From: an uncultured bacterium
GTDB taxonomy: Bacteria; UBA8481
DNA length: 64,000 bases
NCBI GenBank assembly: GCA_964499705.1
Contig: CAZCME010000004.1
Coordinates: 1 to 64,000 of the forward strand
Direction: 5' to 3'
Part shown: piece by piece, positions 58,208 through 64,000 of the stretch
How the letters are laid out: every line of letters starts with the position of its first letter
Numbering within the stretch: position 1 is the stretch's first letter
Notes under the pieces: generated by a model
The model's input: the letters and a program-made list of their open reading frames with translations, nothing else
Databases searched by the model: none
What the model was told of the DNA's origin: nothing
Made by a program: the position numbers and the translations under genes

Positions 58208-58942
58208 TCACGGAAAATAGTATACTGTCCCCGTATTATCCAGGAGCGCGGGGTCGTCGGTGAAGATGGCGGCGGCGCCACGATCGATGAGGAGCTCGGC
58301 TTCGGCGGGATCGTTGATGGTCCAGATGAAGACGGGGACGCATCCGTCGCCGGTCAGTTCCGGAAAGAAAAGTTCCGGAGGGAGATGCAGCGCGCGAGGT
58401 TTGATTCTGCGCGCCGCGTCCAGAAGCATCGCAGGGCTGACCGTGCCGCGCCGGGCGGAGAAAAGAAGGCCGACGGGGAACCCTTCACGCACGACGGTTT
58501 CCATGAGACCCATGTTGAAGGATGAAAACCAGATGTCCGTCTTTTTCTCGCCGCGGGCGATCTCACGGGCCCTCGTCCATGATTCCGGGGCCTTGATCTC
58601 CACATTCAGAGCGCACCGGCCGTCGATGAATTCCAACACCTGCGAAAGCGAGGGAACGCCGACGCGATTCACATCCTCGAAGCGCGCTTCCGCGACCGGA
58701 CCATGGCCCTGGCCGGTCCTGTCCAGAGTCGCATCGTGGAGCAGAACGACTTCGCCGTCGGCCGTTAGCCGGATATCGATTTCAACTCCATCGGCTCCCG
58801 CGTCGATCGCGATGCCGATGGATTCGATCGTGTTCTCCAGAGCACGAGCCATCGCTCCTCGATGACCGAATATCTTCACGTTCCCGCGCCGCTCCCGCAT
58901 TGCCCGGGTTCCCGTCGCTCGCGAATTCGCGCCGTTCCTCAT
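58208..58942 (-). CDS. Glycerophosphodiester phosphodiesterase (start 58942, 58900 or 58879)
   Basis: FGHRGA, ENT, EIDIRLT.DG, HD.TL.RT, NVEIK, WTIND, IFTD. Confidence 0.9.
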   Translation of the reverse strand: MRNGANSRATGTRAMRERRGNVKIFGHRGAMARALENTIESIGIAIDAGADGVEIDIRLTADGEVVLLHDATLDRTGQGHGPVAEARFEDVNRVGVPSLSQVLEFIDGRCALNVEIKAPESWTRAREIARGEKKTDIWFSSFNMGLMETVVREGFPVGLLFSARRGTVSPAMLLDAARRIKPRALHLPPELFFPELTGDGCVPVFIWTINDPAEAELLIDRGAAAIFTDDPALLDNTGTVYYFP

Positions 58943-59946
58943 GATTCTCTCGTGCGCGCGACGGCCCATCTCGCGAATATCTCGTTGCGCCGCGCCGCGG
59001 GCATCGACGGATTGGACCGGTGGCGTTCCGGACGCAGAAGCATCACGGATTCCGCCCGCGCCGCCAGGTAGGCCGCTCCCCAGGCAACCGCATTTTGTTC
59101 CGCGACACGAATGACGGGCGCGGCCATCATGTCGGCGATCACTCCGGTCAGTTCATCGCTCCGCGCATAGGATCCGACCGCGTACAGTTCCTCGACGACA
59201 GCCTCCCCCGCAAGATCCGCGAGCGCCGCGCGAACCTCCAGGCCGACCGCTTCCAGAGCGGCGCGCGCCACCTGCGGCCTTCGCACTCCGTCCTTGAGCC
59301 CCATGATCGCGAACCCATCGTCCCTGGAGGAAGCGATTCCCTCCTCGCCCGCAACCGGCTGACGGGACCGTCGGGCAAAACGCACTCCGGCGGAATCCTT
59401 GCCGATCCGAGCAAGGTCGCGGATGTCATCAAACGATTCCACCAGGCCGAGCCGGCTGATGAGCACGCGAAGCGGTTCCAGGATGTCCGGAGTCATGCGA
59501 TGATGCATCACGCGGCGCTTTCCCTTCTCATCCGTCACCTCGATACTCTCCCCTTCTTCACATTGTTCCGCGTAAAGCCTCACCGGGTCATCGAGCATGA
59601 GCCAGGCCTTGTTTCTGCCACCGGCGAAAATCGGGAGGAGAGATTCGATCTCCGAGCCGGAGAAGGAGATTTTCAATCCCCCGATCAGCGGCAGGTGCGG
59701 ATCGAAGCGGCCATCACGGAGAAGCTGATCCGCAAGAACGAAGTCCTGCGGAGCGAATGCCACTCCCGCGCACCGGCAGTGTTCGCGATCACCCAGGCTC
59801 TCCAGTGCTCCCATGACGGAACGCGCCAGCACTTCGGCTCGGATGGCGCCGACGGGCAATTCGAATGAAGAACGGGCCACGACGCCGCGCTCCTCATGCA
59901 CCAGCACGGCGGTGACGGAATGACCTATGGCTAGCCCGCAGATCAT
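58939..59946 (-). CDS. Divergent, shortened FGGY-family (glycerol-kinase-like) protein
   Basis: DSAGV.F, I.GL...R..VARAALEAV, L.AVG..A.SD...IAD....V, AWGAAYLA; canonical N-terminal motif is degenerate. Confidence 0.55.
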   Translation of the reverse strand: MICGLAIGHSVTAVLVHEERGVVARSSFELPVGAIRAEVLARSVMGALESLGDREHCRCAGVAFAPQDFVLADQLLRDGRFDPHLPLIGGLKISFSGSEIESLLPIFAGGRNKAWLMLDDPVRLYAEQCEEGESIEVTDEKGKRRVMHHRMTPDILEPLRVLISRLGLVESFDDIRDLARIGKDSAGVRFARRSRQPVAGEEGIASSRDDGFAIMGLKDGVRRPQVARAALEAVGLEVRAALADLAGEAVVEELYAVGSYARSDELTGVIADMMAAPVIRVAEQNAVAWGAAYLAARAESVMLLRPERHRSNPSMPAARRNEIFARWAVARTRES

Positions 59947-60015
59947 CTGGAGAAAGAGACGGGGGTGTTGCTCCACAGGCGATATGTCTTCACACCGTTC
60001 ACCTTGCAATGCTCA

Positions 60016-60645
60016 TCATAGGAGGACACGCGGAGATCGTAAATCGCTCCTTCGAGCGAACGCCTCCTTCCAGTACATCCTGCCCGTGCGAAGGCAATGA
60101 TCCTCCCATTCCGACCTGATCTCCAGGTTCCATCCTTCTGAAAAGAGGAATGCCGGATGAGAGGCGATCGTCTCAAGAATGCCTCCGTGCAGACCCTCGT
60201 GATCGGTCATGATGTATATCCTCGAACCTGGCGGCATGAGCAGAGCCAGTTCATCGAGGAAGCTCGTGGAAAGCACTCTCCTCTTATGGTGACGTTTTTT
60301 GGGCCAGGGATCGGGAAAGAAAAGATAGGCGGCGTCGATGCGGCGGTTCGGCGTGAAATCGCGGATACGGCCGGCGATATTTCCCCAGAGGACATGAGCA
60401 TTCCGGAGCTGCGCGGCGCCGATCTTTTCCAGCAATTCCTCCACGAGAGGTTTTCGAACCTCGGTGCCGAGAATATTCATGCCCGGGCGGGTCCTCGCGT
60501 GTTCCAGGAGAAATCCGCCCTTCGACGCGCCCCATTCGATCGCCAGCGGCAGCGCCGGATCCGCGAAGACTTCATTCCATGCCGGTGGTTCCAGTCCTGG
60601 AAAAGTGCGCAGGGGGTTGGCGTGCGTGCGGATCCGTTTCTTCAT
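60016..60645 (-). CDS. trmB: tRNA (guanine-N7) methyltransferase
   Basis: RIRTHANPL, IEWGASKG, FPDPWPKKRHHKRR, TD, SEWE. Confidence 0.93.
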   Translation of the reverse strand: MKKRIRTHANPLRTFPGLEPPAWNEVFADPALPLAIEWGASKGGFLLEHARTRPGMNILGTEVRKPLVEELLEKIGAAQLRNAHVLWGNIAGRIRDFTPNRRIDAAYLFFPDPWPKKRHHKRRVLSTSFLDELALLMPPGSRIYIMTDHEGLHGGILETIASHPAFLFSEGWNLEIRSEWEDHCLRTGRMYWKEAFARRSDLRSPRVLL

Positions 60646-60665
60646 GAGTGTGTTATCATAGCAGG

Positions 60666-61076
60666 ATGTTCCGCCTTCGTGTCATTCTCTGGACGCTCGC
60701 CGCGCCGCTCGCGCTGCGCGGCGGAATAGCGCGCGCCTTCGACTGGTATCGTCCGCGTTCCGCCGGATCCGTTCACGACGCCCCTGAAAGGATCGTGGAG
60801 GCCGCGGACAAGATCCTCCTCTACCGTATCCGCGGCAGGCTTGTTTTCCGCACGCGCTGCTTGAAACGCACACTTGTCCTTTATCGCCTTCTCAGGGAGA
60901 GCGGCCACCCGGCAGTCGCGCATATCGGGCTCGGCCGGGGCGAGCACGGTTTCGACGGCCACGCCTGGCTGACTCTTCATGGCCGACGGATCGAGGATCC
61001 GACCTTCACTCCGCAGCGCGACTTCACGCCATTCCTGGAAATCGATGAGACCTCGAAGGAATTACGCGGCGCGTGA
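60666..61076 (+). CDS. Lasso-peptide B2-type leader peptidase (transglutaminase-like Cys protease)
   Basis: RCLKRTLVL..LL...G......IG.......GHAWL..G: Cys nucleophile plus HAW. Confidence 0.85.
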   Translation: MFRLRVILWTLAAPLALRGGIARAFDWYRPRSAGSVHDAPERIVEAADKILLYRIRGRLVFRTRCLKRTLVLYRLLRESGHPAVAHIGLGRGEHGFDGHAWLTLHGRRIEDPTFTPQRDFTPFLEIDETSKELRGA

Positions 61077-61999
61077 GCGAACATCTCTCGACCGACTTCC
61101 TGATCGCCGGTGTCCGGACGCGTATCTCATCCGACAGGAATGATCCTCCGTATTCGGCCATGATCGAGGATTTGAGCGCGATGCGAACGACGGATCCCGG
61201 CGAAGCCGAATGCGAACTCATGCTCCATCCGCGCGGCTGGGACGAGCCGTCTCCCCTGAAACTCCCCGCTGACGCAAAGCTTCTACGAAGCGGCGGGCGC
61301 AAAGTGTTCGAACATGACGGCGCATATTTCATCGATTTCCATGAAGAGGCTTTTTTTCAGCTTCATGCGGCACGCATGGAGGGTGTCTGCTATTGGGGGC
61401 CCGAACTCGATCCGATGTTCTGGACGGAAATCTGCCTGCCGTATGTTCTTGCGCTGCTCTTGCGCCGGCGCGGATTGTTTCTCCTGCATGCGGGCGGCGC
61501 CGTATCTCCGGATGGAACCGCGATGCTCTTCACGGGTCGAAGCGGGGCGGGAAAATCCACGACCGCGTTCCGGCTGGCCGAAGCCGGATGGACCTATCTC
61601 GGAGACGACATGGTCTTCTACGATGCGCATTACCGGATCCATGCCTTCCCGAAGCTCGCGGCGGCGACCGAATGGACGGTCGAGCGTTTAAAGCTGCTCC
61701 CGCGCGTGCTCAGAATTCGCCCCACGGGAAAAAGAGTCATCCGCCCATGGCTCGCGCCGGCCATGCCCCCGGAAAAATTCCGCATCTTCGCGCCGATTCC
61801 CGCAACTTTCGCAAAAAATTCCATCGCTCCCCTGGATCTGGATTCCGCGGTGGAAATTCTGTCCGGCCAGGCGCAGTTCTGCCACACGGATCATATCGTC
61901 GGCGGTCCCGCGCCCGATCTTGTCCCGCTGGCGGCGCGTACCCTCGAGATCAGGATCGGCGATCTCGCATCGCTTCCTGATTTTCTCGCGGCAATCTGA
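61073..61999 (+). CDS. HPr-kinase-like P-loop protein (putative peptide kinase)
   Basis: LHAGGA, Walker A GRSGAGKST, YLGDD; GTGA overlap with the B2 gene. Confidence 0.8.
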   Translation: MSEHLSTDFLIAGVRTRISSDRNDPPYSAMIEDLSAMRTTDPGEAECELMLHPRGWDEPSPLKLPADAKLLRSGGRKVFEHDGAYFIDFHEEAFFQLHAARMEGVCYWGPELDPMFWTEICLPYVLALLLRRRGLFLLHAGGAVSPDGTAMLFTGRSGAGKSTTAFRLAEAGWTYLGDDMVFYDAHYRIHAFPKLAAATEWTVERLKLLPRVLRIRPTGKRVIRPWLAPAMPPEKFRIFAPIPATFAKNSIAPLDLDSAVEILSGQAQFCHTDHIVGGPAPDLVPLAARTLEIRIGDLASLPDFLAAI

Positions 62000-62004
62000 C
62001 CGGA

Positions 62005-62931
62005 TCAGTCCGCTCCGAAAACCCGCATCAGCCGTTCCCGGGTCTGCGGAAACTGAAAAAACGTCGATCGTCGGCGGGAGCCCAGAGTCCAGGTCCACAT
62101 TCCTCGCGGAACCGCGGCATCATGTTCGATCGAGAAAGGAAATGCGTCTCCGGGAGAAACCGGCATGGAATCGACGGGAAAGAGCGTCCGGAACCAATGC
62201 TGTCCGGACCACGCTTCATCGGGTTTCTCCTCCAGGACAACGCCGGGCGAAAGCCGGGCCGACCACCAGGCAAGAACAGCGTTGCATTCGCCGGATCGAT
62301 CGGCCACCAGCGTGCAGGATCCGGAAAACCGGTCGCCCGTCGCCGTCATGAGATCGATCTCCGGCAGCGAGGACCCGGGGCCGAGCAGCATCGACGGCTT
62401 GAGATAATCGGGAAACGTGTAATGCTCCATGCATTCCGCCAGCGCGGAAAAATCGAAACCGTACCGCTTCTCTCGCCAGAAAGCCGCTGCCTTGGCGACC
62501 GGTACCGAATTCACGAGCGCCACGCGAAGTTGGACGGCCGACGGAATAACGATTCCTTCCTGCTTCAAGAATCGGCGCGCCGATTCCATGACGGAGATGA
62601 TTTTCTCGTCCAGGAGCATATTGCCGATCATTTCACAGACGATCGTATCGACGGGTTCGATGGCGGACGGATCCAGCTTCCTGATGTCGTCGTGAATGAA
62701 CCGGACATTCGATCCGTTTTTCCTCGCGACGGCGCGCGCATAATCGATCATGTCGCCCGCCTCCACGGCGACCACGTCGGCGCCAAGACGCTCCGCCGCC
62801 AGGGCGAGAATGCCGGTGCCCGTACCCACGTCGAGAACGCGGCTGCCGGGCCGCACGCGTTGCTTCAGCGCGGCGAGAAAGGCGTTCGTTCGCACCTCGT
62901 CGCTCAGCAGGGCGGCATGATATTCAAGCAT
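62005..62931 (-). CDS. PRMT-fold SAM-dependent methyltransferase
   Basis: HAALLSDEVRT, VLDVGTGTGIL, double-E loop CEMIGNMLLDE, FLKQEG.VIP, FW...YGFDFS arm, QHW loop. Confidence 0.85.
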   Translation of the reverse strand: MLEYHAALLSDEVRTNAFLAALKQRVRPGSRVLDVGTGTGILALAAERLGADVVAVEAGDMIDYARAVARKNGSNVRFIHDDIRKLDPSAIEPVDTIVCEMIGNMLLDEKIISVMESARRFLKQEGIVIPSAVQLRVALVNSVPVAKAAAFWREKRYGFDFSALAECMEHYTFPDYLKPSMLLGPGSSLPEIDLMTATGDRFSGSCTLVADRSGECNAVLAWWSARLSPGVVLEEKPDEAWSGQHWFRTLFPVDSMPVSPGDAFPFSIEHDAAVPRGMWTWTLGSRRRSTFFQFPQTRERLMRVFGAD

Positions 62932-62949
62932 GAGGATGAAGAAAGATGA

Positions 62950-63147
62950 TCAGGGCATAAGCCAGGGAGGGATGTCCATCGGCGCCGAAGCGCCTCCGCA
63001 TCGCCCACTCTGGCAATTGATCGAGCTCCGCGTTCCGCTCGGCTGCTGATACGTCTCGATCCCCGTGTAGGGAAGCTTGTACCGGGTCAAATGCGGCTTG
63101 AGATAGGCCTTGCCCTTGTTCTCGTGGCAGCTCTCCGTCTTTTTCAT
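62950..63147 (-). CDS. Putative RiPP precursor peptide (65 aa)
   Basis: SD GAGGT, ATGA overlap with the rSAM stop, YLKPHL (YxxPxL) leader motif, Ser/Gly/Cys/Arg-containing core. Confidence 0.7.
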   Translation of the reverse strand: MKKTESCHENKGKAYLKPHLTRYKLPYTGIETYQQPSGTRSSINCQSGRCGGASAPMDIPPWLMP

Positions 63148-63998
63148 GCGGCACCTCGGATGAAGACTCCGTTTATGATGTCGTCGCGACCGAGCCAAGC
63201 GGCGGTCACTTCGCAATGATGCGGAGCGGGGCGGTCATAATGCCCCGTCTCCTGAACAAACTGACCCATGCAACGGTAGCGGCACGAGGAAAGCATCGAG
63301 CACGATTTGCACGTGGAGATCTCCGTGCCTTTCTGCATCCGGATTTCATTCAACCTCCGCGAATTTCTCCAGACGTGCCGGAACGGAGTGTGCCGGATAT
63401 TGCCGACCGATTCGGGAACCTGCGAGCAGGGATACAAGTCCCCCAGCGGACCCACCGCGAACCTGCTCCACCCCATGTTGCACATCTCCGGATGATCCTC
63501 GTCGATGCAGGATGAAAATTCCGGGCGGCCCGTCCATTCCGTATAGCGACTCTCGCACTCCCGGATCTCGGCGGGCGTCAGGCGGTCCGCGAGAAACCCG
63601 TCGTTGCCGGAAACGAAACGGGGCGTGATGTGATACGATGGTGCGAAGATGGCGCCGGCTTCTTCGCAGAGCCTTCCCAGCTCCGTGATCGAATCGAAGT
63701 TCGTCCTCATAACCGACATCTTGACGATCGTCTTGATGCCGGCATCGACCGAAAGTTTCACCTTGGGAAACGCCCGCGCGAATGCTCCGGGCATCTTCAC
63801 GAACCGGTCATGCGATGCTCCCACTCCATGAATCGAAAAATGCAGCTCCTGGATTTCCTGCGACACGAGATATTCGATGTCCTCCTCGGAGAGGACCGTC
63901 CCGTTCTGAAATATCTCATACCGGAATCTCAAGCGGCAGGCTTCGCGGACAATCTCCCGCCAGCCGCGGTGAACAAGCGGTTCCCCGCCGCTGAACGT
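63144..63998 (-). CDS. Radical SAM/SPASM-domain protein, 5'-truncated by the window edge
   Basis: Frame open to the edge: FSGGEP, QNGT, SIHG...HD; SPASM C.MG.......G.LYPC...GN....F..VW...CKSC.....C...C. Confidence 0.9.
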   Translation of the reverse strand, partial: TFSGGEPLVHRGWREIVREACRLRFRYEIFQNGTVLSEEDIEYLVSQEIQELHFSIHGVGASHDRFVKMPGAFARAFPKVKLSVDAGIKTIVKMSVMRTNFDSITELGRLCEEAGAIFAPSYHITPRFVSGNDGFLADRLTPAEIRECESRYTEWTGRPEFSSCIDEDHPEMCNMGWSRFAVGPLGDLYPCSQVPESVGNIRHTPFRHVWRNSRRLNEIRMQKGTEISTCKSCSMLSSCRYRCMGQFVQETGHYDRPAPHHCEVTAAWLGRDDIINGVFIRGAA

Positions 63999-64000
63999 GA

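Follow-up and report, generated by a model that had tools for sequence, protein, structure and literature searches.

A conserved small peptide gene next to a radical SAM/SPASM gene in an uncultured bacterial lineage: a probable precursor of a cyclase-less, lasso-derived RiPP

A 65-codon open reading frame at positions 62950..63147 (- strand) of the window, the stretch of 64,000 nt analysed here (genome G000, contig C4, positions 1-64000), is a real, conserved gene, and its frame is conserved. Its product is probably the precursor of a cyclase-less, lasso-derived radical SAM (rSAM) RiPP, for which a B1/B2/kinase module would have been joined to an rSAM/SPASM enzyme and a PRMT-like methyltransferase. 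The uncultured lineage is poorly known, and relatives are labelled Candidatus Hydrogenedentota. If this explanation is true, the lasso machinery for leader recognition and removal (B1, B2, kinase) works outside lasso biosynthesis and a bacterial PRMT homolog is placed in a RiPP-type operon, both within a small and testable six-gene system. In the available text of a 2023 review, the C96 transglutaminase-like peptidase is treated as a lasso feature (PMC10885120). Neither a description of such a cluster nor a precedent for a PRMT in a RiPP-type operon was found among openly accessible article texts.

The peptide gene and its family

The gene encodes 65 residues followed by a stop, with the translation that had been quoted in the original prediction, and its product is termed here the type A peptide. 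The Shine-Dalgarno sequence and the translational coupling to the rSAM gene that had been proposed are both present: the sequence shows a GAGG (63154..63157, -) with 6 nt between it and the ATG, and the start codon (63147-63145) and the rSAM TGA (63146-63144) overlap in an ATGA. The same overlap is seen in G001 and G002, which together with G003 belong to the GTDB family of the window's genome. The window carries no annotation; in the protein collection searched, the exact 65-aa protein has an entry, P0001, that derives from a called gene. The GC3 is 0.80 in the peptide frame, 0.68-0.74 in the neighbouring genes and 0.51 in an overlapping frame at 62924-63154, which had been raised as the one possibly translated. 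That frame is interrupted by 10 stops in the G003 ortholog and has no match at the four type A ortholog loci (best value 6.1, elsewhere in the loci), while its single match below E 0.1 (0.012) falls over the type B peptide gene of G004; with these values its translation finds no support.

The phylum sample consisted of five genomes from five genera and two families, all of them MAGs (completeness 88% for G002 and 86% for G003). A protein search returned one 64-residue homolog with 69% identity, and one peptide homolog carries the NCBI name 'hypothetical protein'. In G001, G002 and G003 a homologous small ORF is found directly 3' of the orthologous rSAM gene (rSAM identity 66, 55 and 48%), and, over the whole set, the gene immediately following an orthologous rSAM (48-73% identity) encodes a peptide homolog in 5/5 genomes and 4/4 metagenome contigs; these contigs are not independent, since three of them are near-identical to G003. 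A homologous small ORF beside orthologous rSAMs, whose absence would have spoken against the original prediction, is thus present, and the view that the gene is genuine, encodes a precursor-like peptide and is linked to the rSAM was borne out. Twelve loci of distant rSAM relatives or paralogs (21-29% identity) hold no family peptide (best E-value 0.16). A profile search against 1.84 billion representative proteins gave 22 matches at E<=0.001, of which 16 are peptides of 56-75 residues; a further one, called as a protein of 293 residues, carries the peptide C-terminally, and the other five are long repetitive proteins, two of which (P0015, P0020) were inspected and judged unrelated. Another search covered 5.8 billion proteins and yielded 14 matches among 355 candidates, the only names being 'hypothetical protein', and no Pfam or NCBIfam model matches the peptide. 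Two loci from the scan with P0017 (Aestuariivirga and Arthrobacter) were set aside as spurious, as neither contains a family member or a cluster protein.

The peptide diverges faster than the rSAM (37% vs 73% identity in L060). Between G003-like contigs, 2-3 synonymous and 2 non-synonymous codon differences (too few for dN/dS) and one in-frame 15-nt indel were counted. The N-terminal part of the G003-type leader has a short SRKD(W/R) repeat (L026:1114-1338 (-) compared with L061, L062 and L063), in which an in-frame 15-nt indel separates near-identical contigs. The ESM Atlas model of the peptide is disordered (pLDDT 0.22), and a search of ESM Atlas with the peptide yielded neither a match scoring 0.8 or more nor a structural match that was informative. 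An Rfam scan returned tRNA only, and the promoter and terminator scans showed no excess over shuffled controls. Six DNA runs from two studies contain the stretch in full or in part, and in three of these at least half of its sampled words are present; no RNA run containing it is on record.

Leader register and predicted cleavage

Leader and core positions were counted over 23 sequences, namely the 22 aligned members and the L060 peptide. The lasso-type RRE recognition motif YxxPxL, on which the original prediction was built, is Y15-L-K-P18-H-L20 in the window's peptide (63088..63105, -) and is kept as [YW]xxPx[LVI] in 23/23 members, counting one that has Q for P ([YW]xx[PQ]x[LVI]). The residue 15 positions after the leader aromatic is Ile or Val in 18/23 (I 15, V 3, A 3, P 1, E 1), the next position, -1 in the register used below, is Glu in 14/23, and the invariant Tyr follows 18 residues after the aromatic in 19/23. 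In the 22-sequence alignment P18, Y23 and G38 are conserved in at least 90%, and R22, in the leader TRY, is the only near-invariant Arg of type A peptides (Lys in 3/22).

According to the available text of PMC10368454, the YxxPxL motif of lasso precursors spans positions -17 to -12 and Thr is usual at -2; Ile or Val at -2 is described for lasso precursors accompanied by HprK-like kinases, whose B1 protein assists both the kinase and B2. The family matches this register at -17..-12 and at -2, which predicts B2 cleavage at E31|T32 with I30 at -2 (I30-E31, 63055..63060, -, the predicted -2/-1 residues). Because the lasso register of PMC10368454, as available, was applied to the family, residues 1-31 (63055..63147, -) are taken as the predicted leader and T32-P65 as the predicted core. 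Cleavage had previously been placed after YTG, ETY or GTR, on the assumption of Thr at -2; these three sites are unsupported, because they depend on T28, T32 and T39, none of which is conserved in the alignment, and the -2 position of the family is Ile or Val instead (18/23). The fixed leader register provides in their place a concrete prediction of the cleavage site, E31|T32.

Predicted core

The predicted core, residues 32-65 (TYQQ...PPWLMP; 62953..63054, -), varies strongly between genera, four residues aside. The invariant residues of the 22-sequence alignment are M1, Y33, C45, C50, P60 and W62, to which the core adds a conserved [ST]37-G38. The C-x4-C pair noticed earlier (C45-x4-C50, 62998..63015, -) holds up in relatives, both Cys being invariant in 22/22, and these residues are proposed donors for rSAM-made thioethers. 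Spacing from the Tyr to the first Cys is 12 residues in 20/23, that between the Cys residues ranges from x4 to x7 across the family, and the tail after W62 has 1 to 5 residues. Tyr, Cys and Trp are typical rSAM targets. Of the several Ser/Thr that had been offered as kinase substrates, only the one at position 37, followed by Gly38, is conserved, and the others are not.

The GR motif, suggested earlier as substrate of the PRMT-like enzyme, did not survive the comparison. It is not conserved, so that a core Arg is not a family-wide target of this enzyme, and 10/23 predicted cores are devoid of Arg, including those of G001, G002 and G003, which all retain the PRMT-like gene. The lack of a conserved core Arg despite retention of the PRMT double-E loop counts against the RiPP interpretation. 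The absence of a lasso macrolactam register, remarked on in the original prediction, was confirmed: the window's peptide has no Asp or Glu at core positions 7-9 in any plausible register, across the family such a residue occurs there in 1/23, and the predicted first core residue is T, S, F, E, A, M or Q.

Two other core chemistries were considered and rejected, a PQQ-like E/Y chemistry, as E31 is not invariant and the spacing differs, and a C-terminal mycofactocin-like chemistry, as members differ in the length of the tail that follows W62 (1 to 5 residues).

Enzymes encoded in the cluster

The gene preceding the peptide encodes a 353-aa rSAM/SPASM maturase (63144..64000, continuing to contig position 64205, -) with Pfam Radical_SAM and SPASM matches, a CxxxCxxC motif and the full SPASM Cys set. 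Its closest solved relative is the thioether synthase SkfB (E 4.4e-34), followed by PqqE, CteB and SuiB. All its NCBIfam matches are far below the cut-offs (best 126 bits vs 500), which counts against the RiPP interpretation; for named families the scores are 91.3/300 bits for SkfB, 74.9/850 for AlbA, 93.3/625 for StsB and 56.9/340 for PapB. The rSAM gene is in turn preceded, with an ATGA overlap, by a gene for a 98-aa B1-type PqqD protein (contig 64202-64498, -). The solved relatives of this protein at E<=1 are 4/4 lasso B1-type or PqqD-family chaperones, namely the lasso RRE TbiB1 (the best, 3.5e-16), 9x90, 9x8z and TfuB1. It reaches 47 bits against the NCBI lasso PqqD model, below the cut-off of 80, and this was also counted against the RiPP interpretation.

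On the + strand, a 142-aa transglutaminase-like protein (60648..61076), with a Transglut_core3 match, scores 52.7 bits against NCBIfam NF033537, above the lasso B2 cut-off of 33, and is a predicted lasso-type B2 leader peptidase; its Cys/His/Asp-containing blocks FRTRCLKR, GHAW and DP are kept in 4/4 orthologs aligned. This gene overlaps by GTGA the gene of a 308-aa HprK-like kinase (61073..61999, +), which is convergent with the methyltransferase gene. The HprK matches of the kinase are weak, and H...GxxGxGK[ST]...DD is kept in 4/4 orthologs aligned; the available text of PMC10368454 gives H...GxxGxGKS...DD for the kinases of lasso precursors.

The methyltransferase (308 aa, 62005..62931, -) is encoded 18 nt after the peptide gene. 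It matches Pfam PRMT_C with 40.5 bits (cut-off 27) and a PRMT of the PDB with E 3.9e-26 over residues 5-266, in an alignment that places CEMIGNMLLDE and QHWFR on PRMT loops, which we take to be the double-E loop and the THW loop, respectively. The E...E of the double-E loop is kept in 5/5 orthologs, and the THW His is Ser in G004. By these sequence features (Rossmann SAM domain, PRMT beta-barrel, double-E loop) the enzyme is a genuine PRMT homolog. It is the sole strong PRMT match of each genome and always lies inside the cluster.

No lasso cyclase, an Asn-synthetase-like C protein, is encoded among the cluster-adjacent genes at any locus. The genome G000 has eight PF00733 matches (six strong, of Asn-synthase type, and two weak), all on other contigs.

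Conservation and surroundings of the cluster

The six-gene set is conserved. The PqqD, rSAM, peptide and methyltransferase genes are contiguous in 5/5 genomes, and the kinase and B2 genes are contiguous with them in 4/5. In G003, the kinase and B2 genes lie on another contig and start 123 nt from its end, and the methyltransferase gene ends 182 nt from the end of its own; since both parts are located at contig ends, the split is compatible with adjacency. The flanking genes differ between genomes (SecDF, YceG, cpYpsA, and tRNA-Leu in G000). No other small conserved ORF that might be a rival precursor was found in the cluster, and there is no room for one, because the genes are separated by 2, 5 and 18 nt and a tRNA lies in the 120 nt that precede the PqqD gene. 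A transporter or immunity gene is likewise absent from the cluster, which was counted against the RiPP interpretation.

Several neighbouring features were recorded. The tRNA-Leu(CAA) gene (L002:4621-4706 (+), contig C4:64620-64705, about 620 nt past the window end) lies directly upstream of the PqqD gene, at the operon boundary, and a long ORF of 573 aa on the opposite strand, with no family match, overlaps the tRNA at its 3' end. On the other side, trmB (tRNA m7G46 methyltransferase, 60016-60645, -) has its start 2 nt away from that of B2, which is on the opposite strand, and is followed by an FGGY-like kinase gene (58939-60009, -), a pairing beside B2 that recurs in G001 and G002. Elsewhere in G000, C10:63574-66237 (L009, L012) carries two tandem rSAM/SPASM paralogs, 27-28% identical to the cluster rSAM, with a weak HprK-like match adjacent and a layout that resembles a SynChlorMet-type cassette; a further rSAM paralog (C13:68982-69971) lies about 8 kb from an Asn-synthase gene.

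A second locus with a paralogous peptide

A paralogous 'type B' peptide is present in 5/5 genomes, the G000 copy being located outside the window at contig C32:4611-4778 (+) (locus L027). It shares with type A the leader motif, the Tyr and the Cys pair, and has an RGRGRG tract between the second Cys and a terminal APPPWG (...CxNNPPGCRGRGRGxxAPPPWG). RGRGRG is a classic PRMT substrate, and with the RG-rich type B peptide there is a concrete candidate for what the methyltransferase acts on. The type B gene follows pdxA-ksgA and a radical SAM-like protein of about 170 residues in all four genomes that belong to the window's family, and in G004 neither ksgA/pdxA nor this radical SAM-like protein was found beside it; in 5/5 genomes it precedes a poorly conserved protein of about 200-250 residues, upstream of an M23 peptidase gene. 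The radical SAM-like proteins (L027:4059-4565, L029:3673-4197 and L040:3193-3726 (+); L028:8955-9656 (-)) have a CxxxCxxC motif; they are unusually short and show a partial Radical_SAM match only, with no SPASM domain.

A small, highly conserved excisionase/MerR-like HTH protein (DEYLTSKEA.EYLKVSSVTLWRLVKEGQ.PVYKIHNRNRYR) was observed in G001, G002 and G004 (L028:7637-7876 (-), L040:4809-5039 (+) and L039:5543-5860 (-)), between the protein of about 200-250 residues and the M23 peptidase.

In G002 and G003, which are 88% and 86% complete, there is one PqqD-domain gene per genome, in the type A cluster. A single RRE may therefore act on type A and type B alike, and the PRMT, B2 and kinase might perhaps be shared by the two peptides as well.

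Proposed pathway and alternative explanations

Starting from the gene, its frame, the gene set and the leader register as observed, we infer every chemical step of the pathway as follows. The PqqD protein would bind the leader through Y15, P18 and L20 and present the core to the rSAM/SPASM enzyme, which may introduce one or two cross-links; the likeliest would be thioethers from C45 and C50, possibly involving Y33 or W62. The kinase would phosphorylate the conserved Ser/Thr37 and the methyltransferase would add methyl groups to an uncertain target, while B2 is predicted to remove the 31-residue leader after I30-E31, leaving a product of about 34 residues. Besides the points already mentioned, two further ones were weighed against this RiPP interpretation, the occurrence of the system in all genomes of the lineage, a distribution that an antibiotic-type RiPP would not usually show, and the location of the precursor downstream of its maturase, which is the less common order.

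A wider proposal combines both peptides and is held tentatively, as one that could well prove wrong. According to it, the system, spread throughout the lineage and devoid of a cyclase, would descend from the lasso B1/B2/kinase module and would have been rewired to an SkfB-like rSAM/SPASM enzyme and the lineage's only PRMT, serving type A and type B (RGRGRG) precursors; the product might then be the first RiPP with PRMT-type arginine methylation, with an intracellular housekeeping-type role.

The main rival to the RiPP interpretation, although an unlikely one, is that the same enzymes process the peptide into a peptide-derived cofactor or intracellular housekeeping molecule that stays in the cell, in the manner of PQQ, of mycofactocin or of QhpC, a cross-linked subunit. 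A cofactor-like product is favoured by the presence of the system in all five genomes and the lack of an exporter. Both peptide types occur in 5/5 genomes of five genera and two families, the cluster has neither exporter nor immunity gene, and the type B paralog has conserved pdxA-ksgA neighbours in all four genomes that belong to the window's family (neither gene being found beside it in G004). Furthermore, the pairing of PqqD with an rSAM/SPASM enzyme follows the logic of PQQ and mycofactocin, and the rSAM has full-length NCBIfam matches that include MftC (93.7 bits) and PqqE (92 bits). However, these scores are far below the cut-offs for MftC and PqqE (265 and 381 bits, respectively), and the peptide has neither an E-x3-Y, the PqqA-type motif, nor a C-terminal GVY, the MftA-type one. 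Four residues aside, its core is strongly variable between genera, the B2 peptidase and the kinase are lasso-type parts, and the 'universal' presence rests on five genomes.

It is quite improbable that the peptide acts as a small protein in unmodified form, for example as a regulator or accessory subunit bound to the PqqD or rSAM protein, conserved for this interaction and with no role as substrate. Although translational coupling to the rSAM gene and conservation across the lineage would be expected on such a view, the peptide carries a lasso substrate-recognition motif in the correct register, its gene is accompanied by those of a B1-type RRE and a B2 peptidase, its model is disordered, and it has an invariant Tyr, two Cys and a Trp that are typical of rSAM targets.

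Still less credence was given to a true lasso peptide with a cyclase gene at some other place in the genome. The B1, B2 and kinase proteins and the leader motif resemble those of lasso systems, and G000 has six Asn-synthase-family genes at other sites, but no Asn-synthase homolog is found on the cluster's stretch of contig C4, an Asp or Glu occurs at predicted core positions 7-9 in 1/23 only, and the first core residue (T/S/F/E/A/M/Q) is not a small conserved residue. The peptide is judged not to be a lasso peptide because of the missing cyclase in the clusters and the rarity of Asp/Glu at core 7-9. Finally, a chance ORF, of which high-GC DNA offers many long spurious examples, or translation of the frame at 62924-63154 in its place, can practically be dismissed, given a frame kept across homologs of 33-69% identity with in-frame indels, the difference in GC3 between the two frames, and the stops of the alternative frame in G003 and its lack of matches at the four type A ortholog loci.

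Comparison with known systems

Among systems with an rSAM enzyme, the PQQ (PqqA/D/E) and mycofactocin (MftA/B/C) pathways share with the present cluster a small peptide, a PqqD-family chaperone and an rSAM/SPASM enzyme in an operon with no exporter. They differ in their peptide motifs, the rSAM described here scores 92/381 bits for PqqE and 93.7/265 bits for MftC, and the PqqD protein is closest to lasso B1 proteins rather than to PqqD or MftB. The SynChlorMet cassette (ScmC, ScmD, ScmE/ScmF; TIGR04248-04251), on which no paper was found among openly accessible article texts, contains the same trio of HprK-like, PqqD-like and rSAM/SPASM proteins, to which the cluster proteins give weak matches. 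Scores are below the cut-offs (ScmC 25.1/125, ScmD 20.4/100, ScmE/F 110.9/400 bits), and the cassette, unlike the present cluster, has neither B2 nor PRMT. As for the methyltransferase, it is alike to the eukaryotic-type PRMT1/2/3/6/8 in full-length similarity, in the PRMT_C beta-barrel and in double-E-loop-like and THW-like motifs; it differs in being bacterial and in belonging to a RiPP-type operon whose in-cluster peptide has no conserved core Arg.

The kinase-associated lasso clusters, such as bsf of Bradymonas sediminis and the paeninodin type, are alike, so far as the available text of PMC10368454 describes them, in their discrete B1, B2 and HprK-like kinase, in a leader YxxPxL at -17..-12 and in Ile/Val at -2. 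In contrast to them, the cluster presented here has no in-cluster cyclase, no Asp/Glu at core 7-9 and no ABC transporter, an rSAM/SPASM enzyme and a PRMT-like methyltransferase are added, and the precursor follows the rSAM gene. The sactipeptide and ranthipeptide systems (SkfA/SkfB, subtilosin AlbA, CteA/CteB) also have an rSAM/SPASM maturase with an RRE beside a Cys-bearing precursor, whereas here the RRE is a separate B1-type protein, leader removal would be by a lasso B2 and the precursor has only two Cys, with thioethers as the presumed cross-links. By analogy with these systems, the handling of the leader resembles that of a kinase-associated lasso cluster, and the handling of the core resembles that of a sactipeptide or ranthipeptide system.
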